A stretch of DNA of 64,000 nt, taken from positions 47,356 to 111,355 of the forward strand of contig JBFMCV010000003.1 in assembly GCA_040754335.1 (NCBI GenBank). Reading direction: 5' to 3'. Shown piece after piece: positions 5,115-32,290 of the stretch (positions are counted from its first letter, which is position 1; each line of letters starts with the position of its first letter). Position numbers and translations under genes: made by a program. The DNA is from Thermodesulfobacteriota bacterium (GTDB lineage: Bacteria > Desulfobacterota_D > UBA1144 > Nemesobacterales > UBA2774). The notes below the pieces were generated by a model. The model saw only the letters and a list, made by a program, of their open reading frames with translations, was not told the origin of the DNA and did no database searches.

Positions 5115-5124
5115 CTTAATTTCC

Positions 5125-9424: not shown

Positions 9425-9498
9425 TTTTAAATGCCGATTCTGCTCCGTTTTTGAAAGTGAGGAATTAGGGCCCGGACGTCATGGTCCGGACTCAGGCT

Positions 9499-11067: not shown

Positions 11068-11188
11068 CGCCTTTTCGGGAATTCAGACCGCCTGTCCAGG
11101 GGTTCCGTTGACGCATTCGGCACAAACATTACTCACTGGCTTCCGACCACGATCGATATACTGATAAAATCGATTTTTAAGAGAGACA

Positions 11189-13555: not shown

Positions 13556-13578
13556 GTTAAACCTCCTCTCCGATATCT

Positions 13579-14586: not shown

Positions 14587-14759
14587 GTTACCCTCCCCAT
14601 GGGCACGAAAGAACGATAATTCACCTTGGGATTAACTGCTTTTACGGCTGTCCGGAACGCGCGAACACGGGATTTGACACAGCTTCGCCACCTGACTCAC
14701 ATCCCTAAACTCACTACGCCGTTATCCGGGAACCGGTTTATTACAAAGCCGGCAAACAA

Positions 14760-15350
14760 TCAAACTAATTCAATATCAGCCGTGTTTATATCAACAGCCA
14801 CGGACCGCTTAATGATATCGATCGAAATAACGAGTCTTTTGTTCCCTTTCCCGGAAAGTACCTTTCCCGTAATTCCCGCGAGCGGGCCGTTTATGACTCT
14901 TACTTCTTTCCCCTCCTCAAAATACGGGTACGGATCGCTCTCCATTTTCGCTTCCAAGAATTTTCTGACAGAATCTATCTGATCATTCGGGACAGGCTGG
15001 AGCCTGCCGTTTGCGCTCAGTATTCTGACCACCCCTCGAGTGTTCAGAACTTGAAAAATCGCGAGTGAATCAAGCGGGTGGATTCGCACAAAAAGGTAGC
15101 CGGGGAAAAGCGGGAGCTGAATCCGTTTCTTCCTGTCTATCCACTGACTGACGACATCCCTCAGAGGGAGAAAAGTCTCGATCCCCCTTTTCTCAATAGA
15201 GCGGTTGACCGCCTTTTCATGCCTGACGTTGGTGTAAACCGCATACCATTCTTTGTGCTCATTGTGCGCGCCGATGTCGAAGTTACCGGACGAGAGGGTT
15301 CTCTCCTTGTGCACAGATTGCGTGATGTCAGTTTCGACGATTTTATTCAT
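14760..15350 (-). CDS. NusG-family transcription antiterminator paralog (RfaH/UpxY-like)
   Basis: NGN domain (WYAVYTNVRHEK...GIETFLPL) and a KOW-like C-terminus. The ATG overlaps the stop of the upstream receiver gene by 8 nt. Sits immediately upstream of the EPS operon. Confidence 0.65.
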   Translation of the reverse strand: MNKIVETDITQSVHKERTLSSGNFDIGAHNEHKEWYAVYTNVRHEKAVNRSIEKRGIETFLPLRDVVSQWIDRKKRIQLPLFPGYLFVRIHPLDSLAIFQVLNTRGVVRILSANGRLQPVPNDQIDSVRKFLEAKMESDPYPYFEEGKEVRVINGPLAGITGKVLSGKGNKRLVISIDIIKRSVAVDINTADIELV

Positions 15351-15774
15351 AATATTTCCGTCCCGATGCCGGTCTCAGAGCCCCAGGCGGGCCCTCTTGC
15401 GCCGATGAACCATGCTTCTTTGCCAGCCTGTTTATAATTCTTGCAACCTCATCGAATTCCGTGGATTTATCCAGGAAATAATCCGCTCCCTCATCTAAAC
15501 ATTTTTTTCTATACTGAGGGTATGGAAAGTTCGTGAGCATTATTATTTTCTGATCGGAACGACTATTCTTAAACTTTTTAAGAAGTTGTATTCCATTCCA
15601 CTCATCCATGCGTATGTCGAGTATTATGACGTTCGGTTTGAGGTTATTGTTTGCCAGAATCGCGCTTCGTCCGTCTTCAGCCTGCTCCACGATATCCACT
15701 CCGTCAATCGAATCAAGTAAACTTACCAACCTGTCACGCACAATCTTGGAATCATCCACTACTAAAACCTTCAT
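15343..15774 (-). CDS. Single-domain response regulator (CheY-like receiver)
   Basis: MKVLVVDDS...ILDIRMDEWNG...MLT receiver motifs. Confidence 0.75.
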   Translation of the reverse strand: MKVLVVDDSKIVRDRLVSLLDSIDGVDIVEQAEDGRSAILANNNLKPNVIILDIRMDEWNGIQLLKKFKNSRSDQKIIMLTNFPYPQYRKKCLDEGADYFLDKSTEFDEVARIINRLAKKHGSSAQEGPPGALRPASGRKYYE

Positions 15775-16050
15775 GATATTGTTATCCGAACAGTTTTGTA
15801 CTGAGCATAACGTATAGGCGTTAAATTAGAAATCAGGAAACTTCCCTAATTTATATAGGACTCTGGATAATAGTTTTGTAGGGATTTTCCTACAATTGCA
15901 TCAAGCAGAAAGACTGCAAAGGTTGAGCAGAGGAATTCTGCTAATTGATCATTTACTCTGACAAGAAGCGTATTAATTGAATTACATGCCGCAAATGTTT
16001 CAGAATGTCGGAGTAAATGCCGGAAGGTTACATTGCAAAATACGCCTGAG

Positions 16051-16680
16051 CTAAACGAGGGCGTGCCTGATGGAATAATTTATGAGCTCGGCGTTCGTTT
16101 TCATGTTCATTTTCTGTAGTATGCGCGTGCGGTATGTGCTCACAGTCTTTTCGCTTAAAAATAGCTCATTCGATATCTCTTTTATCGTCTTACCCATCGC
16201 AATCATGCACAACACCTGGAACTCGCGGTTCGAGAGGGCCTCATCTGGCGTCGAAGAGGAATTATCATCCAAATCTTGAGCCAACTTTTCAGCGAGAGAC
16301 GGACTCACGTACTTGCCCCCGGCGACAACCTTCCTCACAGCTCTCACGAGCTCTTCGGGGGCGCTGTCTTTGGTCATATAACCTGCAGCACCGGCTTTAA
16401 GAACTCTTACGGCATACAAGCTTTCCGGGTAAATGCTTATTATAAGCACGTTCATTCCGGCATGTTCCCTCTTTAACTGCTCCAGAAGATCGAGCCCGTT
16501 CCTATCGGGAAGCGATATATCGAGCAGTATCACATCAAACTTCGTATTGCGGATTAACTCCAGGGCCTCTCTCGCTGTTCTCGCTTCGTCATAAACAGAG
16601 ATATCGGATTCGTTCTCAAGAATAAATTTCAGCCCCATCCTTACTACAGGGTGGTCATCAGCAATAAGCACCTTAATCAT
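16051..16680 (-). CDS. NarL/FixJ-family response regulator (receiver + LuxR HTH)
   Basis: IADDHPVVR...LLDISLPDRNG receiver, plus a LuxR-type HTH (LSNREFQVL...KTVSTYRTRILQKM). Confidence 0.85.
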   Translation of the reverse strand: MIKVLIADDHPVVRMGLKFILENESDISVYDEARTAREALELIRNTKFDVILLDISLPDRNGLDLLEQLKREHAGMNVLIISIYPESLYAVRVLKAGAAGYMTKDSAPEELVRAVRKVVAGGKYVSPSLAEKLAQDLDDNSSSTPDEALSNREFQVLCMIAMGKTIKEISNELFLSEKTVSTYRTRILQKMNMKTNAELINYSIRHALV

Positions 16681-17482
16681 TCGTTTTCCTCCTACTCGGA
16701 ATGAAGATTGACACCTTGGTCCCCTTCCCGCTCTTGCCTACTATATCTACGTCTCCTCCGAATAAAAGAGCCCTTTCCCTGATACCTAGAAGTCCCAAGG
16801 ACTGGGGAGCGGAAATATCCACCGTTGAAATACCCTTTCCGTTATCTATGACTTCAAGCTTGTACTTGTTACGGTATTGTTTTAACTTAACCTTGACCGT
16901 CGTCGCCCCAGAATGTCGCGCTACATTCGTCAGAGTTTCCTGAAAAATCCGGAATACGGCGGTAGCGTACTCCCTTTCGAGCTCCATGCATTCAAGCTCG
17001 GAGACGAAAATACACTTAATTCCCGTCAGCTTCTCGAAGTCCTGCGCCTGCCATTCGATGGCTCCGATTGTCCCGAGGTCATCGAGTATGCCGGGCCTCA
17101 GCTCCATCGCAATCCTGCGGACCGATTGAATGTTCGAGTCTATAAGCGCTGACATTTTCCTGATTATTTCGTTCAGCGGCTCCGTCAGGGTCTTGTCAAA
17201 TTTCTCATCGAGCCGAGCTTTCAACAAACCCAGGTCTATTTTAAGCGCCGTTAGCGACTGGCCGAGCTCATCATGAACCTCACGCGATATTTTTGTCCTC
17301 TCTTCTTCGCGTACGGACTCAAGGTGCTTAGTCAGAGCACGTAGCTGTTTATAAGAATTTTTGAGCTCTCTTTCTTTGAACCTTCTCTTGGTGATCTCTT
17401 TTCTCAGAGTTTCGTTAGTCTCTTCGAGCTCCGCATTCCTATTATCGACATGCGTGTCAGACTTTGAATTTATCCCTTTCAC
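16673..17482 (-). CDS. Cytoplasmic sensor histidine kinase (HisKA_3 + HATPase_c, NarX/DegS-like), no TM segment
   Basis: N-terminal coiled coil. H-box REVHDELGQSLTALK. C-terminal ATPase motifs (NVARHS..., DNGKGI, GLLGIRERA). Overlaps the RR gene start by 8 nt. Confidence 0.8.
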   Translation of the reverse strand: MKGINSKSDTHVDNRNAELEETNETLRKEITKRRFKERELKNSYKQLRALTKHLESVREEERTKISREVHDELGQSLTALKIDLGLLKARLDEKFDKTLTEPLNEIIRKMSALIDSNIQSVRRIAMELRPGILDDLGTIGAIEWQAQDFEKLTGIKCIFVSELECMELEREYATAVFRIFQETLTNVARHSGATTVKVKLKQYRNKYKLEVIDNGKGISTVDISAPQSLGLLGIRERALLFGGDVDIVGKSGKGTKVSIFIPSRRKTND

Positions 17483-17959
17483 CTTGCGGACTCCGCACTT
17501 CTATCGGATGGTATCCAATACCGTTCGTTTATTTAGACATATAAATATCCGTGCCACCCTGCAATAATCTCGGATATATATATCTAGAAGTTCTGCGGGT
17601 TAACAATCCCTGGCATCGTTCCGCATGTTTCCACATCTCGAAGTGTGGAAAACGAGATTTCAATCCAGGATCCATTTAGTAAAGCGACGGGAGCAAATAT
17701 CGAGTCTTCTTTCTCCGAAACATTCATTCTTGTAAGCCTAACTTATAAAAAATCACAATCAAGCAAAATTTAAATGAAGGTATAGAAGGTATGAACAATC
17801 TTTGCAGTTCATAGCCCTAGGTAAAATTCATGGCAGTGATTCCGGTATGATACGATTGAAATTACCGATCAAAAACTAATTAATTAGAACAGCCATGTCG
17901 TAAAAACAGGGACACCAAGAATGTGAAATACAACTCACTGTTGTTGGAAGATAATGAGG

Positions 17960-18014
17960 TGGCGGAGGGCGAGGGATTCGAACCCCCAAGTCCTTGCGGA
18001 CGCCGGTTTTCAAG
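17960..18014 (-). repeat. 55-bp exact copy of the 3' half of tRNA-Ser (anticodon loop to CCA). It is a tRNA-derived fragment and not a functional tRNA.
   Basis: Identical to 28453..28507. The upstream sequence cannot form acceptor, D or anticodon stems (TAGGA cannot pair with ACCGG). Confidence 0.7.
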
Positions 18015-18326
18015 TCCTATTCAGTGCGTATTCATAACTCTCCGGAGTCACCGAAATAATTGTAAACACACTTAAAAAAACGATTTCCATCTATTACATC
18101 TGGTTCAATTGGTTCTATATGGTGGCAAGAATTATGGATGGTTCTTAGAAAATGCCTAGAAAGAATTGAGCGCTATAGAATGACACCTATTACTATTGTT
18201 CGGAATTAAAAATCTTCGGAGAAATGCGCCATTAAATATTATCTAGTTCGCCACACGGCACATTGAATTGCCCGTGAGTACATTCTCTACTTCAAGTTTA
18301 AAACAGGCTTTTATAAAATTAGAACC

Positions 18327-19076
18327 TCAAATATCAATTTCCATCAAATCTTCAGCTAGAATAACATCCACATCCACATACTTCCTGACCTGGCTGATAA
18401 TATCTATTTCATCACAATCGGAATAAAGGTGTGTCAGAATAATTTTTTTGGCGCCTGAAGCTCTTCCTATCTTTCCGACTTCAGTAGGGGTAAGATGGGC
18501 ATGAAATTTAAGTTCGTCCGGAAAAGAACATTCGATAACTAACAAATCCGCTTCCCTAGCGAGCTCAATTAATTTTTCTGTATATCCAGTATCCCCGGAA
18601 TATACTAATGATTTCCCATTGGACTCTATTCTGTACGCAATGCTGTTCTCGGTATGAAATGTATCGCTCGCTACAAGAACAAAATCTTCGAGCGTTACCG
18701 GTTCCTCATTTATTTCTTTTACGGTTAGCAAGTCCGGAGCAATCCAGTCGTGGTAAGCTGACTTTAGAGATGTGTATAAATCAATGAAACCTCTTGGGCC
18801 CCATATTTCAAGTGGTTTTTCGCGGAATTTTTTTGGGTGAGGATATTTTGTAGCAAATAAAAATGGGATTAAATCCGCAGTATGATCGGGATGAAAGTGG
18901 GTTATGAATATATGGTCCACTTTCAGATAATCCACGCCGACCATGCCTAATTTCCATGTAGTGCCATTTCCGCAATCAAGTAAAACAGTTGATTTTGCAA
19001 GCTCCAGTGCGTAGCCTGATGAGCCTCTTCTAATGTTGGGGACACAAGTTCCGGAACCTAATATATGTAGTTTCAT
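18327..19076 (-). CDS. MBL-fold metallo-hydrolase (RNase Z/ElaC-like short form)
   Basis: HFHPDH metal-binding motif (HxHxDH) with a later D and H. The gene is conspicuously AT-rich compared with its neighbours. Confidence 0.6.
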   Translation of the reverse strand: MKLHILGSGTCVPNIRRGSSGYALELAKSTVLLDCGNGTTWKLGMVGVDYLKVDHIFITHFHPDHTADLIPFLFATKYPHPKKFREKPLEIWGPRGFIDLYTSLKSAYHDWIAPDLLTVKEINEEPVTLEDFVLVASDTFHTENSIAYRIESNGKSLVYSGDTGYTEKLIELAREADLLVIECSFPDELKFHAHLTPTEVGKIGRASGAKKIILTHLYSDCDEIDIISQVRKYVDVDVILAEDLMEIDI

Positions 19077-19674
19077 CTTACAAATTAAAGGGGTTATGAA
19101 CTAAATCCAGCTATCGGTATCTGAAGCTAAACACCGCCCAATCCTAGATTACTGCAATTTCTATACCTGTCTAAAAGTCGGGCCGAGGATAACATATATG
19201 AATAGAGTTCTATATCAAGGGCATTAGTCTCCAAGACAGCCTCTTTGCAATTAACCTTTGATAAGCCGACAATTACATGCTTCATAAGTATCTACAGATA
19301 CATCATATTAATCACTACTCCGTCCATGCATATTAAATATCCATACTCTCTACAATGCCATTCATACAGAAGAAATCACATATATAATAATTCTCTGGCT
19401 ATTATAATTAACAGAAATCGTTAAGCATAAATATTAAGCAATGCTGCTTAGTTCATGTGCATTTCCCGCTACGCATTATTTAGAAAAATCATTATCATCA
19501 GACGTGTATTTGACAAGAATCTGTGTCTATGCCTTACAGACTGAATAATTATTCAATCTTAGCAGACACTAAGCGAAATTTCGTAATATTGCTTGTCACT
19601 CCTTAAAAGATTACATCTCTAATCCTTTTCAGTGGCATTCATCTTGCCACGATATTTTATAGAAAGGGGGATGT

Positions 19675-21564
19675 ATGCCGACAGAACATACGGCGCAAAG
19701 AAAAAGCGCCGAGGATTGTCAACGAGTTAAATCTCCGATACAGGCATATCTAGAGCGGCTTCACGCAAAGTGCTCAAAGCTGCAAGATGGACAGATCGCT
19801 ACCTATATCCCCGAGCTATCCAAGGCGGACCCGAACTGGTTCGGCATCTGCATTGCAACCACAGACGGTCGGGTCTATGAAGTCGGCGATACGCGTCAGC
19901 CATTTACGATACAGTCGATCTCCAAACCGTTCGTATACGGCATAGCTCTTGAGGACAGAGGCATCAATACGGTGCTCGGAAAGATAGGTGTTGAGCCTAC
20001 AGGCGACGCTTTTAACTCGATCAGCCTGGCTCCCGAATCCGGCTGTCCGTTCAACCCTATGATCAATGCCGGCGCAATCGCCGCGACATCCCTTGTGGTT
20101 GGCGATTCCAGCGATGACAAGATGCAGCGCATTTTGAGAGTTTTCTCGACCTACGCTGGACGCGAGCTTTCCATTGATACAACTGTCTACAAATCGGAAA
20201 AAGAGACGGGCCATCGCAATCGAGCGATTGGTCATATGCTGCGCAACTTTAATATACTGAACGAGGATCCCGATATAGCCCTCGACCTCTACTTTCAGCA
20301 GTGCTCAATTTCAGTCGATGCTCGGGATCTTAGCCTTATGGCGGCCACTCTGGCGAACGGCGGGGTTAATCCGCTGACGAAGGATCGAGCAATAAGTGAT
20401 GAGTTCCTCGAAAACCTTATGACCATCATGACAACTTGCGGAATGTACGACTACGCCGGCGAGTGGATGTATTGGATCGGCATACCCGCCAAGAGCGGTG
20501 TCGCAGGGGGAATTATGGCGGTTATGCCAGGTCAGGCCGGGATCGGAGTATTTTCGCCGCCTCTAGATGCACGGGGGAATAGTGTCCGCGGGATCGAGGT
20601 TTGCAAGAACCTTTCGAGGGATTTTAACCTCCACTGCCTTCGCGTTCCGCGCTCCTCACGATCTGCCATCCGGGCTCAGTACGATATCTCCAAGATTAGA
20701 TCCAAACGGCTCCGCGGTGAGCGTGATTCGGAGATTCTCGATAAATCGGGCACCCGGGCAAAAGTTTATGAGCTGCAGGGGGACCTTGTTTTTTCGACCG
20801 TCGAAGTAACTGTCCGCAGGATTGTCGATGCAAGCGATACCCTGGATATCGCCGTCATCGATTTCAAGCGAGTCACAAATATAGAGGACTCGTCCGCCCA
20901 GATACTGCTCGAATTAATCAGGACTTTGGGAGTTAACGGAAAATTCCTTTTATTAGCGAGCTTACAGCAGAGACACTCGAAGTTCATAAGATTCCTGCAA
21001 GAACAGCTTACGAACGACGATCAAGAGAGAACCTGGCTACGCATATTTCCCGATATGGATATCGCAATAGAATGGTGCGAAAACCGTTTGATTGCAGGTC
21101 AACGCCTCGATGACGGCTCTCATGAGGTGAAGCTGGCGGAGCATGACCTCTGCCGCGGACTTACGACGGAAGCCGTAGCGTTCTTGGAAACTATACTTAA
21201 GAGAAGGCGTTATGAACCCGGAGAGCTCATAGTTCGAAAGGACGATCCGGCTGATGAAATCTACTTGCTCATGAGCGGTGAAGTGAGCGTCAGGATCGAC
21301 CTTCCCAACGGCCAAATCAAACGGCTTTCGACCCTTTCTCCCGGTATGGCGTTCGGCGAAATTGCCGTCATAAACCGCTCCGTGCGATCAGCAGACGTCC
21401 ACGCTGATAAACACGTAGAGTGCTATCTACTGTCAACGGCCGCATTCGAGGAGCTTGGCGAGACAAATCCCATGATCAAAATGACGCTTCTCCAAAATCT
21501 GTTACGCAATTTCTCTCGGATGCTTACTATGGTTGAGCGGGAAGTCACTACGCTCGCTTGGTGA
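19675..21564 (+). CDS. glsA: Glutaminase A fused to STAS and cyclic-nucleotide-binding (CAP-family) domains
   Basis: Glutaminase motifs (KPFVYGIALE, NPMINAGAI, SGVAGGI). STAS-like region (YELQGDLVFSTVE...). C-terminal cNMP domain with FGEIAV...RSADV (the PBC RSA motif). RBS AAAGGGGG upstream. Confidence 0.75.
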   Translation: MPTEHTAQRKSAEDCQRVKSPIQAYLERLHAKCSKLQDGQIATYIPELSKADPNWFGICIATTDGRVYEVGDTRQPFTIQSISKPFVYGIALEDRGINTVLGKIGVEPTGDAFNSISLAPESGCPFNPMINAGAIAATSLVVGDSSDDKMQRILRVFSTYAGRELSIDTTVYKSEKETGHRNRAIGHMLRNFNILNEDPDIALDLYFQQCSISVDARDLSLMAATLANGGVNPLTKDRAISDEFLENLMTIMTTCGMYDYAGEWMYWIGIPAKSGVAGGIMAVMPGQAGIGVFSPPLDARGNSVRGIEVCKNLSRDFNLHCLRVPRSSRSAIRAQYDISKIRSKRLRGERDSEILDKSGTRAKVYELQGDLVFSTVEVTVRRIVDASDTLDIAVIDFKRVTNIEDSSAQILLELIRTLGVNGKFLLLASLQQRHSKFIRFLQEQLTNDDQERTWLRIFPDMDIAIEWCENRLIAGQRLDDGSHEVKLAEHDLCRGLTTEAVAFLETILKRRRYEPGELIVRKDDPADEIYLLMSGEVSVRIDLPNGQIKRLSTLSPGMAFGEIAVINRSVRSADVHADKHVECYLLSTAAFEELGETNPMIKMTLLQNLLRNFSRMLTMVEREVTTLAW

Positions 21565-21645
21565 GTCACGAGTTTGTACCAGAACAATCATTAGGTTTTA
21601 TCCGTACAGGTCAGTCGCGGTAAAAATAAGAGAGAGGGGTGGAGA

Positions 21646-24600
21646 ATGAAGAGTAGGCGTTCCCATATCCTGTGTTTTGTTATGGGTACAAGTTTTTTGT
21701 ACGCATATTTGTATTCCCATGCCACTTTCGCGGAAACATGTGAAAAACCGGTTGCAAAAGTGGTCTCAGTTCAAGGAACCGTAGAGGCACAAAGGGCGGG
21801 CGAAACGCAGTGGCAAGAAGTAAAATTAAACGACACATACTGCCCGGGAGACAAGATCCGGGTGCAGGAGAAAAGCCGTGCCGACGTAACGCTCCTCGAG
21901 AAGTCGGTAATCCGTCTAAATCAAAATACCACGATAACGCTCGAAAATGTGAAGGAAGAACGGACGAGTGTTATAGACATGATCAAGGGAGCCGCTCATT
22001 TCTTCAGCAGTGGTCCAGACAGCCTTGAGGTACATACACCGTATACGACTGCAGGTGTCAGGGGAACGGAATTTCTCGTAAGCATTGAAGACGATAAGAC
22101 CTTGTTGTCGACATTCGAAGGTACAGTCGTGGCATCGAACGATGCCGGCAGCCTGACGCTTACCGGCGGCCAGTCAGCAATTGCCGAGGCGGGGAAGCCC
22201 CCGGTGCTCAGTATCGTGGCGCGTCCTCGAGATGCCGTACAATGGACACTCTACTATCCGCCCGTCCTTTATCTCAGTCCCGATGAATTTCAATCCGGGC
22301 CGGGCTGGGAAGGCATGGTTCGTAAATCCATCGAGCTTTACATAAGCGGGGATATTCAGGGAGCCTTCGACAGTATTAAGGATGTGCCTGAGGATGTCCG
22401 CGATCCGCGTTTTTTTACCTATCGGGCCTCACTGCTCTTGGCGGTGGGCCAGGTTAATGAAGCAGATGCCGATATCGAGCGCGCGCTGAGGCTCGACCCC
22501 AAATATAGCGACGCCTTCGCGCTTGAAACAATTATCTATATTGTAGAGAACGAAAAAGACAAAGCCCTTGATGCCGCAGAAAAAGCCGTGGAAACGAATC
22601 CCGACTCCGCCACGGCAGAGATCGCCCTTTCTTATGCACAGCAGGCAATGTTTGACCTGAAAGGCGCTCGAACAAGCCTTGAAAAGGCGGTGCAGCTTGA
22701 TCCTCAAAACGCGCTTGCGTGGGCACGGTTAGCAGAGATCTGGGCGTCATTCGGCGATCTAGGCAAAGCGCTCAATGCGGCACAGGAGGCCGTAGTCCTT
22801 GAGCCGAATCTCTCGAGGACGCAGACAGTTCTCGGCTTCGCATATCTGACCCAGGTCGATACAAAACAGGCAAAGGATGCATTTGAAAAAGCGATCGCCC
22901 TTGACCAGGCCGATTATCTCCCGAGGTTGGGCCTTGGTCTGGCGAAGATCCGGGATGGCGATCTGCACGGCGGCGGGAGGGAGATTGAGATTGCAGCAAG
23001 CCTGGATCCAAACAACTCAATTGTCCGCAGCTATCTGGGCAAGACCTACTTTGAAGAGAAACGCACCAAGCTGGATGTGCGCGAGTACGAAACCGCTAAA
23101 CAACTGGACCCCCTGGACCCGACACCATGGTTCTATGACGCGATAGCGAAACAAACGACGAATAGGCCGGTTGAGGCTCTCCAAAACATGCAAAAATCCA
23201 TTGAGTTAAACAACAACAGAGCTGTTTACAGATCGCGTCTGCTGCTCGACTCGGACCTGGCCGCACGCAGTGCCGGCCTGGCACGTATCTATACAGATCT
23301 CAGCTTCCAGCAGCTTGCCCTCGTTGAGGGATGGAAATCCGTTAACATTGACCCCTCGAGCTTTTCCGCACACCGGTTCCTGGCTGACTCATATGCTGTT
23401 TTACCCCGACACGAAATCGCCAGGGTGAGCGAGCTGCTGCAGTCACAGCTGCTTCAGCCCATCAACATCACGCCGATTCAGCCCCGGCTCGCGGAGAGTA
23501 ATCTATTTCTGATCTCCTCCCAAGGACCAGGCTCTGTCTCCTTCGATGAGTTCAACCCGCTTTTCAACCGCAACCAGGTAACCCTTCTGACGAGCGGCCT
23601 GGTTGCCGAAAATGAGACATGGGCCGGAGAAGGCGTTGTCTCGGCCATATATAATAAGGCCAGCTTCAGCGGGGGTTACTCATACTTCGGCACGGACGGG
23701 TTTAGAGAAAACGACGATCAGAAGGATCAGATCGCAACCGCCTATCTCCAATTGGAGCTCACTTACAAAACAAGCATTCAGGCTGAGTACCGCTATAGAA
23801 ACACAGAACTGGGAGACCTGGCACTCAGATTCTTTCCGGATGACTTCCTCCCAGGCTTGAGAAACAAGCAGGAAAGAAACTACTTCAGGGTCGGTGGACG
23901 GCACGCATTTTCCCCGGGTTCGGTCCTCATCGGCAACTTTACATATCAAAATGCAGATTTTAATTTGACGGACAAGCTTAGTTCCTTTGACGCGAAAAGA
24001 CCGGAAGACGCCTATAGCGCCGAGGCCCAACACCTGTTCCGTTCTCAATACATAAATCTCGTTAGCGGCGCGGGCTACTTCGATGTAAACGGAAGGATCG
24101 ATACGACTATAACGATTGATATTCCCCCGCCCGACGGGCCAATAATTGCTCAATCCACAACAAGTACGGACCTCCAGCACCTTAATATGTACATATACTC
24201 ATACTTGAACCCCATGAACAATGTGACGTTCACCCTTGGGGCAAGTGCCGACTTCCTGAGCGGCGACAGTCCCGATGTCGGGGATAAAGACAAGTTCAAT
24301 CCGAAATTCGGTATAACCTGGAATCCGATCCCGTCTACGACTTTACGCGCTGCGGCGTTCAGGGTGTTAAAGAGAACGCTGATTACGGACCAGACCCTGG
24401 AGCCGACCCAGGTCGCCGGCTTCAACCAATTTTTCGATGACGTCAACGGAACTGAATCATGGGTATTCGGCGGGGCTATCGATCAGAAATTCCCGAAGGA
24501 TTTCTTCGGTGGCGTACAATTTACAAAGAGGGATCTGGAAGTTCCGTTCCTGGATTTTACAGCCGATCCAGAAAATCCTCCGGTCCGGAATGAGGACGTC

Positions 24601-25035
24601 GACGAATATCTGGGTCTAGCCTACCTCTTCTGGGCTCCGCATCCATGGCTCGCGTTAAGAGCACAGTATTTATTCGAACGATTTGAGACTCAGGGTTTGA
24701 CCGACCAGCCGAAAGAGCTGACTACAAATCGTGTCCCCCTCGGGGTCAACTTCTTCCACCCTTCCGGATTGGGCTCTAATGTGACAGTGACTTACCTTAA
24801 TCAGGACGGGGATTTTCTGTCGCCGGACGGTGACGGATTTGTGTCAGGCGAAGATAACTTCTGGATCGTCGATGCAGCGGTCTATTACCGTCTGCCGAAA
24901 CGGTACGGTTTCATCACGGTAGGAGCGACGAATCTCTTTGACCAAGAGTTCAATTATTTTGAGGTAGACGTCGATAATCCGCGCATACAGCCTGGAAGGG
25001 TGTTCTATGCACGGGTTACACTGGCGCTTCCATAA
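21646..25035 (+). CDS. Large secreted protein with N-terminal FecR domain, TPR repeats and a C-terminal region resembling an outer-membrane beta-barrel
   Basis: Signal peptide. FecR-like segment (TVEAQRAGETQWQEV...AGVRGTEFLV). At least 6 TPR-like repeats (AFALETIIY..., ALSYAQQAM..., AWARLAEIW...). The C-terminal ~600 aa has alternating hydrophobic/polar beta-strand character with aromatic-rich ends. Confidence 0.55.
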   Translation: MKSRRSHILCFVMGTSFLYAYLYSHATFAETCEKPVAKVVSVQGTVEAQRAGETQWQEVKLNDTYCPGDKIRVQEKSRADVTLLEKSVIRLNQNTTITLENVKEERTSVIDMIKGAAHFFSSGPDSLEVHTPYTTAGVRGTEFLVSIEDDKTLLSTFEGTVVASNDAGSLTLTGGQSAIAEAGKPPVLSIVARPRDAVQWTLYYPPVLYLSPDEFQSGPGWEGMVRKSIELYISGDIQGAFDSIKDVPEDVRDPRFFTYRASLLLAVGQVNEADADIERALRLDPKYSDAFALETIIYIVENEKDKALDAAEKAVETNPDSATAEIALSYAQQAMFDLKGARTSLEKAVQLDPQNALAWARLAEIWASFGDLGKALNAAQEAVVLEPNLSRTQTVLGFAYLTQVDTKQAKDAFEKAIALDQADYLPRLGLGLAKIRDGDLHGGGREIEIAASLDPNNSIVRSYLGKTYFEEKRTKLDVREYETAKQLDPLDPTPWFYDAIAKQTTNRPVEALQNMQKSIELNNNRAVYRSRLLLDSDLAARSAGLARIYTDLSFQQLALVEGWKSVNIDPSSFSAHRFLADSYAVLPRHEIARVSELLQSQLLQPINITPIQPRLAESNLFLISSQGPGSVSFDEFNPLFNRNQVTLLTSGLVAENETWAGEGVVSAIYNKASFSGGYSYFGTDGFRENDDQKDQIATAYLQLELTYKTSIQAEYRYRNTELGDLALRFFPDDFLPGLRNKQERNYFRVGGRHAFSPGSVLIGNFTYQNADFNLTDKLSSFDAKRPEDAYSAEAQHLFRSQYINLVSGAGYFDVNGRIDTTITIDIPPPDGPIIAQSTTSTDLQHLNMYIYSYLNPMNNVTFTLGASADFLSGDSPDVGDKDKFNPKFGITWNPIPSTTLRAAAFRVLKRTLITDQTLEPTQVAGFNQFFDDVNGTESWVFGGAIDQKFPKDFFGGVQFTKRDLEVPFLDFTADPENPPVRNEDVDEYLGLAYLFWAPHPWLALRAQYLFERFETQGLTDQPKELTTNRVPLGVNFFHPSGLGSNVTVTYLNQDGDFLSPDGDGFVSGEDNFWIVDAAVYYRLPKRYGFITVGATNLFDQEFNYFEVDVDNPRIQPGRVFYARVTLALP

Positions 25036-25112
25036 TCGGAACAAATGAGCAAAGGCGGGGCGATTTTGTCAATGAGATGCAGAAAGGTAAAACACATAAG
25101 GAGGTTGTAATC

Positions 25113-25832
25113 ATGTTGGAGAGATTAACGCTGATTTGCCTGTTAGGTATGGTTCTCTTCCCGGTATTTGGGACTGTAGCCAGTGCGGCGACATGTCCTT
25201 CAGGTTATACGTATAAATGTCCGATCATTGGGGGGACAAAATGCTGCGCGTGCTGGAAGACGGGGAGCGAAATTTGTGACGCTGAAGTCACCGGATTGGG
25301 CAACATTAAAAACTGCGTCCCCGGTGTGAATTGCCCGGTCGTGACATGTTCTGTCTACGGTACAGTAGATTTAGGAGACGGATCGTGCGACCCCAATACA
25401 TTAGACCCTGACTGTGGCATCCAGGGCATCGCATATTGTGTAAACCCGGCAGGTAATTCTTCACAATCCCAGGGAAATCCATTTACTCTAGAGACGGTAC
25501 TTACTGGTGTAGCTGATATCGAGAAATGCGACAAGAATGGCAAATGTCAGAGGTCAGTCGAGGTCAATCCGGAGGATTGCCCGGACTGCTGCATAAATCC
25601 AAATTGGCAATTCAAAACTTTTACGGCCACACAATTCAACGGAGAGGTTTGCGTATGCCCCGGCGGGTACTCAACTGGAGGAGTTTGTTGCGCAGATATT
25701 GCACGACAACTTGACGGCAGTTGTGCGACAGCGGGCGATGAAGTCTGCCTCGCACAGCAATGTACTGCTGATTTGACAGGATACAAACCTGGGAGGAGCA
25801 TACCGTATAATTGCACCGACCTGCCGCAATAA
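25113..25832 (+). CDS. Secreted cysteine-rich protein (about 34 Cys in about 215 mature residues), hypothetical
   Basis: ATG at 25113 preceded by a perfect AAGGAGG. Signal peptide LICLLGMVLFPVFGTVASAA. Many CC, CxC and CxxC motifs. Confidence 0.6.
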   Translation: MLERLTLICLLGMVLFPVFGTVASAATCPSGYTYKCPIIGGTKCCACWKTGSEICDAEVTGLGNIKNCVPGVNCPVVTCSVYGTVDLGDGSCDPNTLDPDCGIQGIAYCVNPAGNSSQSQGNPFTLETVLTGVADIEKCDKNGKCQRSVEVNPEDCPDCCINPNWQFKTFTATQFNGEVCVCPGGYSTGGVCCADIARQLDGSCATAGDEVCLAQQCTADLTGYKPGRSIPYNCTDLPQ

Positions 25833-25948
25833 GTCGTGGCAGCGTGACACTGTGAGTCGATGCAGTTTGAGCATATACGGATTCCGTCGAGTATAGTCCG
25901 CGTAACAGATTCAGACCGCGGGTAACTTCTCTATCGACGGGTGTGCCT

Positions 25949-28219
25949 ATGAGATTATCTCTTAAACCCCTTTTCTCGATCAATCCTGTTTCTCTGACTC
26001 TAGGCACAATCCTGGTTGTTATAGTGCTCTTCCTGGCAAGAATAACGATCCTCGACCTTATCGAATTGAAAACTTACGACCTCCGATTTCTAACTCGCGG
26101 GCAGTTACCATCCTCCCCGGCGGTCGTTATAGCAGCCATAGACGAAAAAAGCCTAGATAGCGAAGGGCGCTGGCCCTGGCCCAGGTCCAAGATCGCCGCT
26201 CTCGTGGATATCCTTTCTCAAGACGGAGCCAAAGTGATCGGTTTTGACATCGGTTTCCTGGAGGCGGATGAGAACTCACAGCTTGCGTTGATCAATCAAT
26301 TTAGTCAGAAAGTAGATGCTCAATATGGTAAAAACTCACGGCTGGCCAGCTTCATACAAGAAAGCAAAAAGCGAGCCGACAACGACACGGCCCTGGCCGA
26401 AGCCATAAAAAAATCGTCCGCGGAAGTAGTTCTTGGATACTTCTTTCATATGAGTGAAGCCGACCTTGATTATAGTATCGAACAGAGCGAGATGGACAAA
26501 CAGCTTGAACGCATCAGTGATTCAAAATACCCTTTCGTACTTTACGAAGAACAGGGAACAGATTCCGTGCCCTTTATTAAAGCCTATGCGCCCGAGAGCA
26601 ATCTCGAAATTATCACCGAAGCGGCAGCCTCTTCGGGCTACTTCACCATGCGAAGTGATCAGGACGGTGTCCTCCGCTGGATGCCGCTCACTATACAGTA
26701 TGGCGAGGATTTGTTTCCTCCTCTGGCGGTCTTGTGTGCCTGGCAGTACCTGGGCAAACCTCAACTGATGGTTAAGGTCGGGCGATACGGAGTGGAAGAG
26801 ATACAGATGGGAGATCGTTTCATACCGACTGATGAAAGCGGTCAACTGCTCATTAATTACCTAGGCCCTCCAAAAACCTTTCCTCATCACTCTGCCAGCG
26901 ATATTCTGAGCGGCAAGTTCACTAAGGGAACTTTTAAAGATAAAATCGTGCTTGTTGGGGCCACAGCCACTGGCATCTATGATCTGAGGAACACACCCTT
27001 CAGCCCCTCATATCCCGGTGTGGAGGTTCATGCCAGTGTCATCGACAACATATTGACACAAAATTTCATCTCGAAGCCCAGATGGTCGAGGATTTACGAC
27101 CTGCTCGCCATAATTATTCTGGGAGTTCTCATCGGGATCGCCATACCGCGTATGAGTGCACTTAAAGGGTTTTTGTTTGTCGCCGGACTGATCATCTTAT
27201 ACATCTCCGTGGTACTGTGGCTCTTCGTCAGAGCCGGAGTGTGGCTCAATATCGTCTATCCCCTGCTGACGCTATCAATGAGTTATATGGTCCTTACCGT
27301 TTATTATTATGCTACGGAAGAGCGGGAACGTAAGAAAATAAAAAAGGCATTCACTCATTATGTAGCACCCGTGGTAATCGAAGCCATGCTGAAGGACCCG
27401 TCCCAGTTAAAACTGGGGGGAGATGAGAAGGTTCTGACAGTCTTGTTCAGCGACCTTCAGGGATTTACTTCCGCATCTGAGCGTTATGCCCCTCATGAGA
27501 TGATCGTGATTCTGAGCGAATACTATGCCCGGATGACAGAACAGGTATTCGCACATCAGGGGATGCTGAAAGAATACGTGGGTGACGAGATGATGGCTAT
27601 TTTTGGCGCCCCTATTGATCAGAACGACCATGCGGAAAGAGCGTGCGCCGCAGCCCTGGCCATGCGGGATAATCGAAATACGCTGAACGAAGAGTGGGCC
27701 GAGATTGGACGCCCGCCCCTGATCGCCAGGACAGGGATCAACTCGGGCCGCATGCTTGTAGGGAATCTGGGATCCAAATATCGTTTTGCTTACGGCGTTC
27801 TAGGGGACCATGTGAACCTGGGCTCCCGTCTTGAGGGTCTAAACAAGGGTTACGGTACTGAAATCCTCATCGGTGAGAACACAGCACAGCTTGTCGGCGA
27901 TAAGTTTCTCCTGCGGGAAGTCGACATGGTGCAGGTGGTCGGCAGGGTACAGCCCGTGCGTATATATGAGCTCCTGGCCGCACACGGCACGCCACTGCAT
28001 CATGAGCAGGAGAAAGCATTCGGTTTCTATGCTGCAGGGCTGGAAGCGTATCGAGAACGGCAATGGAACGAAGCTCTTGGTATATTCAACAAATGCCTGG
28101 GGCTATGTCCCGATGACGGTCCATCACGAACAATGGCGGAGCGTTGTCAAATCTACCGGAAGACACCGCCCCCTGAAGAGTGGGACGGTGTTTTTGAAGC
28201 GATCCACAAATTCAAGTGA
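25949..28219 (+). CDS. CHASE2-sensor class III adenylate/guanylate cyclase with C-terminal TPR-like region
   Basis: N-terminal TM helix, a periplasmic CHASE2-like domain (about 330 aa), 3 TM helices, then a CYCc domain (VLFSDLQGFTSASE...VGDEMMAIFGAP...GINSGRMLVGNLGS...YGVLGDHVNLGSRLE). Confidence 0.8.
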   Translation: MRLSLKPLFSINPVSLTLGTILVVIVLFLARITILDLIELKTYDLRFLTRGQLPSSPAVVIAAIDEKSLDSEGRWPWPRSKIAALVDILSQDGAKVIGFDIGFLEADENSQLALINQFSQKVDAQYGKNSRLASFIQESKKRADNDTALAEAIKKSSAEVVLGYFFHMSEADLDYSIEQSEMDKQLERISDSKYPFVLYEEQGTDSVPFIKAYAPESNLEIITEAAASSGYFTMRSDQDGVLRWMPLTIQYGEDLFPPLAVLCAWQYLGKPQLMVKVGRYGVEEIQMGDRFIPTDESGQLLINYLGPPKTFPHHSASDILSGKFTKGTFKDKIVLVGATATGIYDLRNTPFSPSYPGVEVHASVIDNILTQNFISKPRWSRIYDLLAIIILGVLIGIAIPRMSALKGFLFVAGLIILYISVVLWLFVRAGVWLNIVYPLLTLSMSYMVLTVYYYATEERERKKIKKAFTHYVAPVVIEAMLKDPSQLKLGGDEKVLTVLFSDLQGFTSASERYAPHEMIVILSEYYARMTEQVFAHQGMLKEYVGDEMMAIFGAPIDQNDHAERACAAALAMRDNRNTLNEEWAEIGRPPLIARTGINSGRMLVGNLGSKYRFAYGVLGDHVNLGSRLEGLNKGYGTEILIGENTAQLVGDKFLLREVDMVQVVGRVQPVRIYELLAAHGTPLHHEQEKAFGFYAAGLEAYRERQWNEALGIFNKCLGLCPDDGPSRTMAERCQIYRKTPPPEEWDGVFEAIHKFK

Positions 28220-28452
28220 TATCGTTCCCGTTAGGACACCGGACTATTATCCGGGAATTCTAAAAGTTTTTATATTTGCGAGAATTCCGAAACTTATAAC
28301 TTAGAGCATCCTCTATATATTATTATCTTCTTAAGCGCCAGATCTCCCGAAGCTCTAATTCGAACTTAGAAAATACTTAGAAAGGCAAATTTGACGTGAC
28401 ATTTATCCTGTTTGTAAAGCAATTGCTATCGGCTATGATCATTCAACAAATC

Positions 28453-28538
28453 TGGCGGAGGGCGAGGGATTCGAACCCCCAAGTCCTTGCGGACGCCGGT
28501 TTTCAAGACCGGTGCATTAGCCGTTCTGCCAGCCCTCC
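28453..28538 (-). tRNA. tRNA-Ser (anticodon UGA), type II with long variable arm, CCA encoded
   Basis: Reverse complement: GGAGGGCTGGCAGAACGGCTAATGCACCGGTCTTGAAAACCGGCGTCCGCAAGGACTTGGGGGTTCGAATCCCTCGCCCTCCGCCA. 7-bp acceptor stem, G73 discriminator, anticodon stem CCGGT/ACCGG with loop CTTGAAA, T-loop GGTTCGAATCC. Confidence 0.85.
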
Positions 28539-28646
28539 GGGGGAATGAACGCTACTGGATATTAATATATGGTCTGGACGCCAGAAATACTACCGCGACG
28601 AAGCCGCTCAGGCAAGGAATGCGGACCATAGCATGAGACAATCGCG

Positions 28647-28856
28647 TTAAAACCCGGGGCTATCGAGGTCCTCAAACTTTCCGGGGCGGTAGAGATCAAG
28701 GGCTTTGGGATTGTAAGGACCGCCGTATCCATCACTCCTGCAATCACACGTGTTCTTGTCACACGGACTGCAGCCGCTCCCGGCCGGGCCGCTGACGGCA
28801 GCCCCGCATGCAGTTATGAACAGGAGAAGCAAACAAGGTATGACTAACCTTAACAT
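28647..28856 (-). CDS. Small Cys-containing lipoprotein, hypothetical
   Basis: ATG at 28854-28856 with AGAAGG 5 nt upstream. Lipobox LLFITAC. CSPCDKNTCDC motif. Confidence 0.4.
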   Translation of the reverse strand: MLRLVIPCLLLLFITACGAAVSGPAGSGCSPCDKNTCDCRSDGYGGPYNPKALDLYRPGKFEDLDSPGF

Positions 28857-29967: not shown

Positions 29968-30246
29968 TTAAAAGAGATCGAACTCGAACTCTATTAAATC
30001 ATCGTCGTAATCGTCATCATAGTAGTAGTATCTGACGTCATCGTCGGGATCGACATAATAGTAGTATTTGTCTTCATCATAATCGGCGCGATCAACAAAA
30101 TTAACGCTGGTATCCGGCTGCTCGTAAACATAACGGTGCTCCACTACGCGTCCGGACTGTATAATATAATAATCGTCAGCAAAACTATTAACAGCGGCGC
30201 CAAAAATTAACGAACCCAATAATGTCAATGTCACAATGAGTTTTTT
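29968..30246 (-). CDS. Small secreted Tyr/Asp-rich protein (paralog 1)
   Basis: Start at MKKLIV with AGGAGGTG upstream, then a signal peptide. C-terminal DKYYYYVDPDDDVRYYYYDDDYDDD. Confidence 0.6.
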   Translation of the reverse strand, partial: KKLIVTLTLLGSLIFGAAVNSFADDYYIIQSGRVVEHRYVYEQPDTSVNFVDRADYDEDKYYYYVDPDDDVRYYYYDDDYDDDLIEFEFDLF

Positions 30247-30320
30247 CATTTCATTCACCTCCTGGTAAAAATCGACAACAGCCTCATTCATTCGAGTTCA
30301 ATCAAACGGGCGTCGCCGGT

Positions 30321-30611
30321 TTAATCGTCATAATAGTAAAAGTATCTGACATCGCCATCAGGCTCGACGATGTAGCGGTATTCGATGTCGTCGTCAGGGG
30401 CAACGTAACGGTAGTATTTGACCTCATAATCATCGGGATCTATATAATAAACGTTCCGCTCCCGTTCTATATATACGGGCGGGTCATTTACGTAACGATG
30501 CTGCACGTATCCCGGCGGCACGATGTAATAATAGTCGTCGGCCAAGCTAATGGACGCAGCGCCTATAATAAAAACGCTTAACATCATTAAAGTTACTATG
30601 AATTTTCTCAT
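30321..30611 (-). CDS. Small secreted Tyr/Asp-rich protein (paralog 2)
   Basis: Start at MRKFIV with the identical upstream context GGAGGTGAATGAAATGA. Signal peptide; DDYYYIVPPGY...RYFYYYDD. Confidence 0.6.
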   Translation of the reverse strand: MRKFIVTLMMLSVFIIGAASISLADDYYYIVPPGYVQHRYVNDPPVYIERERNVYYIDPDDYEVKYYRYVAPDDDIEYRYIVEPDGDVRYFYYYDD

Positions 30612-30919
30612 TTCATTCACCTCCTGTGAAAATTCAACGATTTAATGTCAAACAACACATATAGGGGGGCAAAGACCATGCCATGCAGCTAAAAATATTC
30701 ACAATATGCAGTGATTCCGGGGAATTTGTAATCCTATCGGCTTTACATCAGGATTACGAATGCAGGTTCATTGTCCGATCTCATACACAATTTATTGTAG
30801 GCGAAGGTACTGAATGATTTATTTATTTCTCCAACAAAGAGATGAGAAAATTTGCCATTTCCCATCCGCCTTACACCCTATAATGGAAGGCGTAATAATC
30901 CTCACGAGACCGAAGCGCA

Positions 30920-32290
30920 CTACTTTAATAACTCCCCGACTTCGAGGAGTATGAATTCGTTGTCGTCGTTTTTCCCTAATGTACGCCCGGACGAGAAGCC
31001 GTAGTTGTTATCGTTCAATACCACTATGTGCGTCTCATCGTATACGTCGACGCCTTCGGCCGTTTCAAAAGGGAATGTGAACACGGGCCCCTGAGTTACG
31101 AGGCGCGAGACGCCGTTAGGGTCTTTTATGTCGAGCAAATCGACGTAGGCGACCTTCTCGACGAATCCGTATTCATCCACATCATCCATGTCGATCTTGT
31201 AGACCCGCTTGAATATTGCAGGGTCGTCGAAGCAGTCCCCCGCCGCGGCTTTAGCCTTGTCTCCGTTACACGCGAGCGCAGCATCGCCCTCTCCGGGGTC
31301 ACGCTCAATGACGAGCCCCGTCGACACGTTTATGAGATTGAAATCGGTTACGGAATGATTCTTGTCTTCGAGCGCGTATTTGAACGACCGCCCCGTAAAA
31401 GCGCCTTTCCCCATATCGAACTCATAGATGCGTACGAAATACTTCCCGCCCAGGTTCTCGAAGGATTTCGTCTCCTCGATCCACAAGGGCGCTTCCACTA
31501 TCGGGTAGAGATATTTCCCGTCGGGCGAAACCGCCATGCTCTCGAAGCCGCGCGACTTCTTCACGTCGAACGTCACCGGTCCCGGCACGGGAAGTGACTG
31601 GAACGTGTAGTGGTCGGGGGACCTGAGCACCCGGCCGTTGACGTCGAGCTCTCGGAAACCGGTCAACTTTCCGTCCATATCCGTGCGTATAACGTAAGGC
31701 CCGAACTCGTCTCCGATATATACGGAGCCGCCTGCGACCTGTATCGACTCGGGGTCGATGTCGGCCCCAGTCACATAACGCTTATCGGTCGCTTCGTTCG
31801 TAATGCGGAAAGGCAGGATACGGTCAGGGTCGTGGAGATATATCGTTTTTATAAGCTTTACCTCGCCCTTGTCCCAGTCGAACTCGACAATGTGGAACAT
31901 GAGGACCGCGTCGGGGGAGTTTTTGGCGGTGCCGAAACCGTTGTCGGTGATTATGACCGCAGTCCCGTCTTTCAACATCTTGATGCCGGAGAAACCCTGA
32001 AAGGGCTGCCCTTTGACAGGGAGAAGAACGTCTTTCACGCGGGGTTTATTCCGATCCCTCCCCGATATTGACCCGAGATCGTCCCTCCTTTTCGAATCTG
32101 GGTGAGTGTATTTCCCACTCGTTTGCAAATGTGCCGGAACGTCATCAGGCGTGGTCAGGATAGAATTTAAGGGAACGATCGCGTGGCCGGAAAGGACAGC
32201 TTCGACTTTTTCCTGTCCCGATGCGAAAGGAGCAAGATAGAGAGCGACGATAAATAGAATAAACGAGCAGGCGGATGACCGGTCTTTCAT
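30920..32290 (-). CDS. Secreted beta-propeller protein, phytase-like (esterase-like activity of phytase) family
   Basis: Signal peptide. Motifs FESMAVSPDGKYLY and a C-terminal NDNNYGF, recalled as characteristic of the phytase-like family. Unverified. Confidence 0.4.
   Translation of the reverse strand: MKDRSSACSFILFIVALYLAPFASGQEKVEAVLSGHAIVPLNSILTTPDDVPAHLQTSGKYTHPDSKRRDDLGSISGRDRNKPRVKDVLLPVKGQPFQGFSGIKMLKDGTAVIITDNGFGTAKNSPDAVLMFHIVEFDWDKGEVKLIKTIYLHDPDRILPFRITNEATDKRYVTGADIDPESIQVAGGSVYIGDEFGPYVIRTDMDGKLTGFRELDVNGRVLRSPDHYTFQSLPVPGPVTFDVKKSRGFESMAVSPDGKYLYPIVEAPLWIEETKSFENLGGKYFVRIYEFDMGKGAFTGRSFKYALEDKNHSVTDFNLINVSTGLVIERDPGEGDAALACNGDKAKAAAGDCFDDPAIFKRVYKIDMDDVDEYGFVEKVAYVDLLDIKDPNGVSRLVTQGPVFTFPFETAEGVDVYDETHIVVLNDNNYGFSSGRTLGKNDDNEFILLEVGELLK

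Follow-up and report, generated by a model that had tools for sequence, protein, structure and literature searches.

To our knowledge, bacterial signalling through cyclic GMP (cGMP) comprises a handful of known cases. In a 64,000-nucleotide (nt) stretch of DNA from a Thermodesulfobacteriota bacterium (contig JBFMCV010000003.1; the whole stretch is called the window, and coordinates are positions in it), we found five genes at 18327-28219 that probably form a cyclic-nucleotide signalling cluster tying the cell envelope to glutamine catabolism. Among described systems, one of the closest in function is that of Sinorhizobium meliloti, where the CHASE2 class III cyclases CyaD1, CyaD2 and CyaK require the outer-membrane β-barrel protein NsrA and signal via Clr (PMC13001267, PMC5498481). 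The FecR-domain protein SMc02177 and the secreted or periplasmic protein SMc02178 are encoded by the cyclase there, and the TPR protein SMb20495 and a cyclic-nucleotide-binding (CNB) receptor are encoded alongside (PMC13001267, PMC5498481). A cluster of Campylobacterota, for which horizontal transfer is likewise proposed, resembles ours in its component list, with a CHASE2 cyclase, a phosphodiesterase, a FecR outer-membrane protein and TPR (PMC9239204). In Burkholderia, a FecR protein is paired with a CHASE2 kinase (PMC5192318). In Xanthomonas campestris, the guanylyl cyclase XC_0250 is linked to XC_0249, a CNB-GGDEF protein (PMC3770947).

The window cluster differs from these systems in several respects. 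Compared with S. meliloti, FecR, TPR and barrel are fused here in one protein of 1129 amino acids (aa), the receptor is an enzyme, a glutaminase, instead of the Crp-type Clr, the cyclase carries a Glu/Gly pair at its base-specifying positions, and a phosphodiesterase candidate is included. In the Campylobacterota cluster the components are separate proteins; its description includes neither a Cys-rich partner nor an adjacent CNB effector and takes the cyclases to be adenylate cyclases (PMC9239204). The Xanthomonas pair is also a class III guanylyl cyclase beside a CNB enzyme under allosteric nucleotide control; its effector differs from the glutaminase found here, and the abstract of that paper describes neither CHASE2 nor envelope partners for XC_0250 (PMC3770947). 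In the window, CHASE2 cyclase, FecR, TPR and outer-membrane barrel are co-located with the last three in one protein, an arrangement present at 15 of 20 loci with Glu/Gly-type cyclases. Relative to the literature we found, the FecR-TPR-barrel fusion, its obligate Cys-rich partner and the occurrence of the two with Glu/Gly-type cyclases only appear new, as do the swappable CNB effectors and a glutaminase as putative effector.

The window was analysed with Pfam, NCBIfam, ARAGORN, Rfam, AlphaFold2, Foldseek and tblastn. Four co-oriented open reading frames (ORFs) were found on the + strand at 19675-21564 (629 aa), 21646-25035 (1129 aa), 25077-25832 (251 aa, probable start 25113) and 25943-28219 (758 aa), with intergenic spacings of 81, 41 and 110 nt. 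They encode, in this order, a glutaminase-STAS-CNB protein (Pfam Glutaminase, STAS and cNMP_binding), a FecR-TPR-barrel protein (Pfam FecR and TPR families, AlphaFold2 barrel), a Cys-rich secreted protein without a Pfam family, and a CHASE2 class III cyclase (Pfam CHASE2 and Guanylate_cyc). An earlier account made from the letters alone, referred to below as the sequence-only reading, had proposed these four genes at 19675-28219 as a self-contained signalling module, and the ORF positions and Pfam domains agree with it. The module is even more self-contained than proposed, because a fifth gene inside the same flanking repeats had been omitted: a conserved metallo-β-lactamase-fold gene at 18327-19076 on the - strand (249 aa, Pfam Lactamase_B_2), divergent from the glutaminase gene and encoding a putative cyclic nucleoside monophosphate (cNMP) phosphodiesterase. 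A promoter and terminator scan of 17400-28700 gave no excess over shuffled sequences (13 against 15.2 and 13 against 10.3, respectively) and is uninformative on operon structure.

The cyclase is composed of a first transmembrane (TM) helix, a periplasmic CHASE2 domain (26012-27130), three further TM helices, a catalytic domain (27434-27961) and a TPR-like hairpin (about 28016-28117). Pfam scored CHASE2 at 224 bits (PF05226, residues 24-396) and Guanylate_cyc (PF00211) at 77.4 bits (cut-off 21.9); hydrophobic stretches flank CHASE2 on both sides, and CHASE2 lies N-terminal to the output domain. The deposited record of this protein has 756 aa, is 100% identical and begins two codons later, and the 758-aa form matched no record; the start is probably 25949. 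The C-terminal TPR region that had been assigned to the cyclase is weakly supported, as the evidence amounts to one TPR_2 match below threshold (E = 0.003; 18 bits, where the cut-off is 27). In five relatives (L007:16633-18904, also L081, L083, L087 and L088; comparison loci carry the prefix L) the cyclase is present as two ORFs, a CHASE2 part and a catalytic part, which in these metagenome-assembled genomes (MAGs) could be due to misassembly, a frameshift or pseudogene formation.

The nearest PDB chains of the cyclase derive from Synechocystis Cya2 (engineered 6FHT, 1.8e-38; 2W01, 1.7e-36, 38% identity), which has the same CHASE2-TM-cyclase architecture. We judged the active site against eight key Cya2 positions tabulated in PMC6005667. 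Both metal-binding Asp residues are present, with FSDLQGF and YVGDEMM aligned to Cya2 Asp448 and Asp492, and the transition-state Asn and Arg occur in HVNLGSRLE (Cya2 Asn569 and Arg573). The canonical phosphate Arg is retained in ARTGINSG, whereas Cya2 has Arg450. At the base-specifying positions, the Glu in LKEYVGD corresponds to Cya2 Glu488 and the Gly in AYGVLGD to Gly562, and a Tyr precedes this Gly in both proteins. These results uphold the earlier statement that the catalytic motifs are intact, and the enzyme does not look catalytically dead; the position of Cya2 Lys608 is taken up below. The LKEYVGD motif was found in 101 of 120 cyclase homologues, and most of the 120 keep the Glu/Gly pair. 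In Cya2, the pair is given as the determinant of GTP specificity (PMC6005667), and the single change E488K yields an adenylyl cyclase (PMC5995499). Because the window cyclase has the Glu/Gly pair of Cya2, a demonstrated guanylyl cyclase, where adenylyl cyclases have Lys/Asp(Thr), its product is probably cGMP rather than cyclic AMP (cAMP), the messenger named in the sequence-only reading.

The glutaminase ORF matched Pfam Glutaminase (PF04960) at 398.9 bits, STAS at 23.9 bits and cNMP_binding (PF00027) at 69.2 bits (cut-off 27.5), and NCBIfam TIGR03814 at 359.3 bits (cut-off 255.4). The glutaminase domain lies at 19789-20637, STAS at 20755-20973 and the CNB domain at 21202-21465. Its catalytic SxSK and AKSGVAGG motifs (QSISKPF and PAKSGVAGG) align with those of solved glutaminases, with 3AGD as the top PDB match (3e-86). 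The phosphate-binding cassette of the CNB domain, FGEIAVINRSVRSA, is intact and contains the canonical Gly-Glu and Arg (FGE...RSA). This protein is the sole CNB ORF of the 64-kb window, and we regard it as the putative effector of the messenger made by the cluster. The glutaminase-STAS-CNB architecture is widespread, with more than 120 clusters at 58-100% identity that all have both STAS and CNB. A literature search for glutaminase-CNB fusions, or for second-messenger control of glutamine breakdown by such a fusion, returned nothing relevant. A stand-alone CNB protein of 185 aa that resembles the fusion C-terminus (E = 9e-37) lies directly upstream of a FecR-barrel gene in a Binatia MAG (L041:4880-5437), and may be a remnant or a split effector.

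The product of the divergent gene matched Lactamase_B_2 (PF12706) at 70.4 bits against a cut-off of 27, with a weak Apyc1 match besides. It carries the HxHxDH metal motif as HFHPDH, and at about 250 aa it is without the RNase Z arm. Its best PDB match was 6KNS, Bacillus subtilis YhfI (E = 1.6e-22, residues 1-217), followed by RNase Z, which aligned chiefly with the N-terminal half. YhfI strongly prefers cAMP and cGMP as substrates (PMC9117128). The PF12706 protein Rv1339 is a cAMP phosphodiesterase that lowers cAMP, and YhfI, Rv1339 and Corynebacterium glutamicum CpdA are classed as atypical class II cNMP phosphodiesterases (PMC9293780). In length and HxHxDH motif the 249-aa protein is like these three, and its similarity to them suggests that it may be a YhfI/Rv1339-type 3',5'-cNMP phosphodiesterase that degrades the messenger. 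The gene accompanies the glutaminase in all close relatives of the cluster (L001, L006-L008, L012 and L013). Calcineurin-like Metallophos genes, possibly of CpdA type, were seen at L002:14351-15214, L004:15463-16272, L171:2221-2979 and L010:7680-8429; these lie near cyclase or glutaminase loci that are without the metallo-β-lactamase-fold gene and may supply alternative phosphodiesterases.

The FecR-TPR-barrel protein begins with a signal peptide, which is followed by FecR (21850-22128), a TPR array (about 22357-23265), a conserved linker of about 50 aa and the barrel (about 23575-25029). Pfam scored FecR at 65.8 bits and returned many TPR families and a weak OMP_b-brl_3 match; homologues carry PF00593. 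AlphaFold2 modelled the 539 C-terminal residues (591-1129) with about 23 strands, at a predicted local distance difference test score (pLDDT) of 86 and a predicted template-modelling score (pTM) of 0.83. The top Foldseek matches in the PDB were FptA, FpvA, FhuE, OprC, BtuB and FecA (1KMO), with E values down to 2.4e-19 and template-modelling scores of 0.6-0.69. According to this model, the C-terminus is a plug-less 22-strand barrel resembling TonB-dependent transporters. Neither a Plug family nor a TonB box was detected in the protein, and only the conserved segment of about 50 residues lies immediately ahead of the barrel. Residues of about 591-640 (23416-23570) form a near-invariant segment of about 50 residues, SELLQSQLLQP.NITPIQPRLAESNLFLIS...NEFNPLFNRN, for which the model confidence is low; this segment might act as a short plug or in docking.

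The barrel and FecR domain recall the FecA-FecR-FecI system, in which a 22-strand barrel of the TonB-dependent-transporter fold and a FecR periplasmic domain likewise carry information across the envelope. In the window, however, the barrel and FecR are in one polypeptide, the plug and TonB box were not detected, the cluster has no extracytoplasmic function sigma factor, and the output is a cyclase; the likeness is one of functional analogy, not of membership. The Cys-rich protein (251 aa) has 26 Cys residues and a signal-peptide-like N-terminus, and by position its gene pairs with that for the FecR-barrel protein. Almost all loci with a FecR-barrel gene have, downstream of it on the same strand, a small ORF for a secreted product with 7-30 Cys, regardless of how the pair is oriented towards the cyclase. 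This partner evolves fast.

To compare the cluster with other genomes, we surveyed 79 cyclase loci from many phyla, taking one genome per species, annotated them by profile searches built from the window proteins, and sorted them by specificity residues. The CHASE2 relatives (L011-L089) split into a Glu/Gly group and a sister Lys/Thr clade. Counted on loci with at least 5 kb of flank on each side, the FecR-barrel gene was present at 15 of 20 Glu/Gly-type loci and a CNB-domain ORF at 12 of 20, whereas the 10 Lys/Thr-type loci had neither (0/10 for both). The CNB ORFs lay at most 1.4 kb from the cyclase, or had nothing but the FecR and Cys-rich genes in between; with the identical profile, the background was 1 CNB ORF per 539 kb of unrelated metagenome loci. 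The five-gene set recurs in L001/L078, L006-L008, L012 and L013. L002 and L003 keep just the FecR-barrel gene, the small ORF and the cyclase, and in L004 and L005, both Entotheonellia MAGs, a Crp-type regulator takes the glutaminase position. Synteny in other genomes was therefore found, and the proposed adjacency of a cNMP source to a cNMP-binding effector recurs elsewhere in several gene orders.

The effectors beside the cyclases were of several types: glutaminase fusion, PilZ-CNB-Ser/Thr kinase, MMPL-CNB-GGDEF, CNB-Na_sulph_symp, SulP-STAS-CNB, Crp and stand-alone CNB. MMPL-CNB-GGDEF proteins occupy the effector position in L043, L049, L050 and L085. So many CNB architectures in one position suggest repeated and independent recruitment of effectors, and the survey supports the view that CHASE2 cyclases of the Glu/Gly type are accompanied by the FecR-barrel/Cys-rich pair and by CNB effectors that can replace one another. 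Candidate cGMP effectors beside Glu/Gly-type cyclases of other phyla include the PilZ-CNB-Ser/Thr kinase at L014:8175-9944, the MMPL-CNB-GGDEF protein at L043:5399-8665, the CNB-Na_sulph_symp transporter at L015:12213-14978 and the SulP-STAS-CNB protein at L017:6655-8955.

We also examined seven loci with glutaminase fusions outside the clade of the window. In L051, a glutaminase-FecR-Cys operon is convergent with a Glu/Gly CHASE2 cyclase, and in L170 the glutaminase is divergent from a FecR-barrel gene, a small ORF and a Glu/Gly CHASE2 cyclase. In L173, separate TPR and FecR proteins precede a Lys/Thr-type CHASE2 cyclase and then the glutaminase. In L171 the glutaminase adjoins a Lys-type cyclase-AAA_16 protein, and genes for a CNB protein and a Metallophos protein are close by; L010 has a Lys-type cyclase-AAA_16 protein at 8 kb, with CNB proteins and a Metallophos gene close by. 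L009 and L172 have no cyclase within 10 kb. Class III cyclases are thus neighbours of the fusions in at least four differing gene orders, and those glutaminases are 60-63% identical. In L170, an amino-acid permease gene (12036-13367) lies directly 3' of the glutaminase fusion.

Gene content, domain architecture, intact motifs, barrel fold and recurrent linkage are direct observations, and the circuit we draw from them is as follows. The outer-membrane FecR-TPR-barrel protein, together with its disulfide-rich secreted partner, would sense an extracellular or periplasmic cue and hand it to CHASE2, the periplasmic domain of the cyclase in the inner membrane. The cyclase would then turn GTP into cGMP. 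The nucleotide would bind the CNB domain of the glutaminase and, via the STAS linker, alter its activity in converting glutamine to glutamate and ammonium. Finally, the YhfI/Rv1339-like enzyme would hydrolyse the nucleotide and reset the switch. We put the probability of this full circuit, from envelope cue through cGMP to glutaminase with reset by the phosphodiesterase, at about 60%.

Several observations weigh against this circuit, and they are given here with the alternatives that they bear on. The nature of the messenger is one such point, since the specificity of the cyclase was read from two residues and a 38% identity to Cya2, and the phosphate-binding Lys608-Gly of Cya2 is replaced in the window by Val-Gly-Arg (VVGR), with Val at the Lys608 position and Arg two residues on. 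The CNB domain of the glutaminase does not decide between the nucleotides: the Arg-Ser-Ala of its cassette occurs in binders of both, and the PDB ranking, with PKG ahead of PKA by little and inflated by multi-domain targets, is ambiguous. Glutaminase-CNB fusions also lie beside Lys/Thr-type (L173) and other Lys-type (L171 and L010) cyclases, which suggests that the effector family is not bound to one nucleotide. An unchanged circuit running on cAMP is the main competitor, though a somewhat unlikely one. Databases label the family 'adenylate cyclase', the S. meliloti CHASE2 cyclases raise cAMP (PMC13001267), the related fusion in L173 is found by a Lys/Thr-type cyclase, and the YhfI/Rv1339 family breaks down cAMP besides cGMP (PMC9117128, PMC9293780). 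Residue swaps in a mycobacterial cyclase, according to the abstract of that study, did not simply exchange substrate preference (PMC4215837). Against cAMP stands the exact Cya2 pair, with Lys replaced by Glu and Asp/Thr by Gly, and Cya2 needs E488K to gain adenylyl activity (PMC5995499, PMC6005667). The orthologous group retains this pair throughout, and since Lys/Thr persists in a sister clade, selection seems to lie behind the difference.

Doubt about the input step comes from S. meliloti, where the FecR-domain and periplasmic proteins by cyaD1 are Clr targets and are dispensable for signal perception (PMC5498481), so that the envelope proteins here may be outputs and not inputs. They could then form an output or feedback arm, or serve an independent, co-inherited function in outer-membrane transport or surface display, with CHASE2 sensing by other means. 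The barrel fold is that of a transporter, and the Cys-rich partner evolves fast, as a surface-exposed or secreted product would. We nevertheless consider this unlikely. FecR domains are periplasmic signal-transfer modules. The FecR/Cys-rich pair is limited to one cyclase clade and stands beside the cyclase in either orientation; moreover, the barrel NsrA is needed upstream of the S. meliloti CHASE2 cyclases (PMC13001267), and FecR and CHASE2 co-occur with histidine kinases too, hinting at a partnership independent of the output domain (PMC5192318). As for the link between cyclase and glutaminase, the association is less independent than its statistics imply: Fisher tests of Glu/Gly against Lys/Thr loci with at least 3 kb of flank gave p = 3e-5 for the FecR-barrel gene and p = 2e-3 for CNB, but the two groups are clades and the values overstate independence. 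Furthermore, two of the seven glutaminase-fusion contexts (L009 and L172) are without a cyclase inside 10 kb. The genes might accordingly be neighbours by shared descent in one clade, with the CNB domain of the glutaminase answering to other cyclases or to a non-nucleotide ligand, since non-cNMP ligands can also be bound by CNB-fold domains of the Crp/Fnr superfamily. Adjacency without coupling seems very unlikely to us, however, given that linkage occurs in at least four gene orders with glutaminases 60-63% identical, that other CNB proteins fill the same position in sister loci, that CNB ORFs are scarce in the background (1 per 539 kb), and that the phosphate-binding cassette is canonical (Gly-Glu and Arg). 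The envelope-to-cGMP-to-glutaminase circuit is thus the reading we prefer.

How the block came to its present place is a question separate from its function. An intact tRNA-Ser(UGA) gene on the - strand (28453-28538; ARAGORN; Rfam RF00005, 55.8 bits) forms the right block boundary and points its 3' end towards the cyclase gene, and an att-like partial copy of 58 nt on the same strand (17960-18017), not called as a tRNA, forms the left one. The copy and tRNA positions 28453-28510 are a direct repeat with 57 of 58 nt identical, which spans the tRNA from its 3' end as far as the anticodon loop; one of its 25-mers is present two times in the window and in none of 100 shuffles. The att-like tRNA-Ser repeats of the sequence-only reading are thereby confirmed, with one copy intact and the other partial. 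The tRNA was the sole match in the Rfam scan. In relatives, tRNA-Ser directly follows the cyclase also in L006 and L007, with no second repeat within 19 kb, and is absent beside the block in L001. In L008, just a 3' tRNA-Ser fragment (18986-19031, about 36 nt of tRNA in a 46-nt match to the window) follows the cyclase before unrelated DNA, and in L006 a phage-integrase fragment of 103 aa (19115-19426) lies just past the tRNA-Ser 5' end; in relatives, tRNA-Ser(UGA) thus appears to be a preferred site of integration.

The description of the block as a transferable cassette was sustained in part. In its favour, the 58-nt direct repeat brackets exactly the five genes and has the form expected of a crossover at the anticodon loop, and the flanks of the homologous 9.9-kb block (18304-28219) are unrelated between the window, L001 and L006, which makes three genomic contexts. 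The tRNA-Ser hot spot in L006 and L008 and a core cyclase 74% identical in an Entotheonellia MAG point the same way, and horizontal transfer has been reported for similar clusters (PMC9239204). On the other side, no integrase or other mobility gene was annotated among the ORFs between the repeats (18018-28452), and tblastn with the L006 integrase fragment gave no match inside the island; a weak match (E = 8e-4) at 32036-32197, inside another ORF, was judged spurious. A search of metagenome contigs with the left-flank histidine kinase for an empty tRNA-Ser site recovered no orthologous context: the top relative, at 67% identity, came from a 4-kb contig without a tRNA, and the rest were paralogues at about 50%. 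These loci supplied the background sample for the CNB count. The relatives L006 and L007 have the block at tRNA-Ser without the second repeat, L001 has no tRNA there, and low G+C runs past the repeats. On balance, arrival of the block as, or within, a tRNA-Ser-targeting integrative element is a tentative proposal with slightly less than an even chance.

The left flank of the block (296-17482) contains a Wzx/Wzy-type exopolysaccharide cluster, followed by a HisKA_3 kinase and LuxR response-regulator pair. The exopolysaccharide cluster includes glycosyltransferases, Wzy_C, a flippase, Bac_transf, a Wzz/GNVR tyrosine-kinase-like protein, Poly_export and a NusG paralogue, and an ORF at 5125-7668 (847 aa) in this flank is without a Pfam match. 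Just right of the tRNA, two tandem small - strand ORFs (29968-30291 and 30321-30620; G+C 0.42), both without a Pfam match, contain a 111-nt direct repeat of 70% identity (30166-30276 and 30528-30638). A further - strand ORF at 33093-34856 (587 aa) has no Pfam family at E <= 1e-5.

The members of the Glu/Gly clade come from MAGs labelled Desulfobacterota/Thermodesulfobacteriota, Methylomirabilota/Rokubacteria, Myxococcota, Burkholderiales, Binatia and Entotheonellia. A wider proposal is that these loci represent a widespread bacterial cGMP pathway, possibly spread horizontally, in which a plug-less barrel fused to FecR and TPR domains and a fast-evolving, disulfide-rich β-sandwich partner feed a CHASE2 guanylyl cyclase whose messenger acts directly on swappable CNB outputs; we hold this rather doubtful at present. 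If true, a Glu/Gly CHASE2 clade with its own CNB effectors would considerably widen the list of bacterial cGMP systems, and every locus supplies a testable pair of cyclase and effector. What CHASE2 recognises has been described as unknown (PMC5192318), and the strict pairing of these CHASE2 cyclases with a FecR-TPR-barrel protein and its secreted Cys-rich partner offers a concrete, testable candidate for CHASE2 input. The glutaminase with a built-in CNB domain suggests post-translational control of glutamine breakdown by a second messenger, which, if true, would be the first case in bacteria of a cyclic nucleotide directly controlling a central enzyme of nitrogen metabolism.

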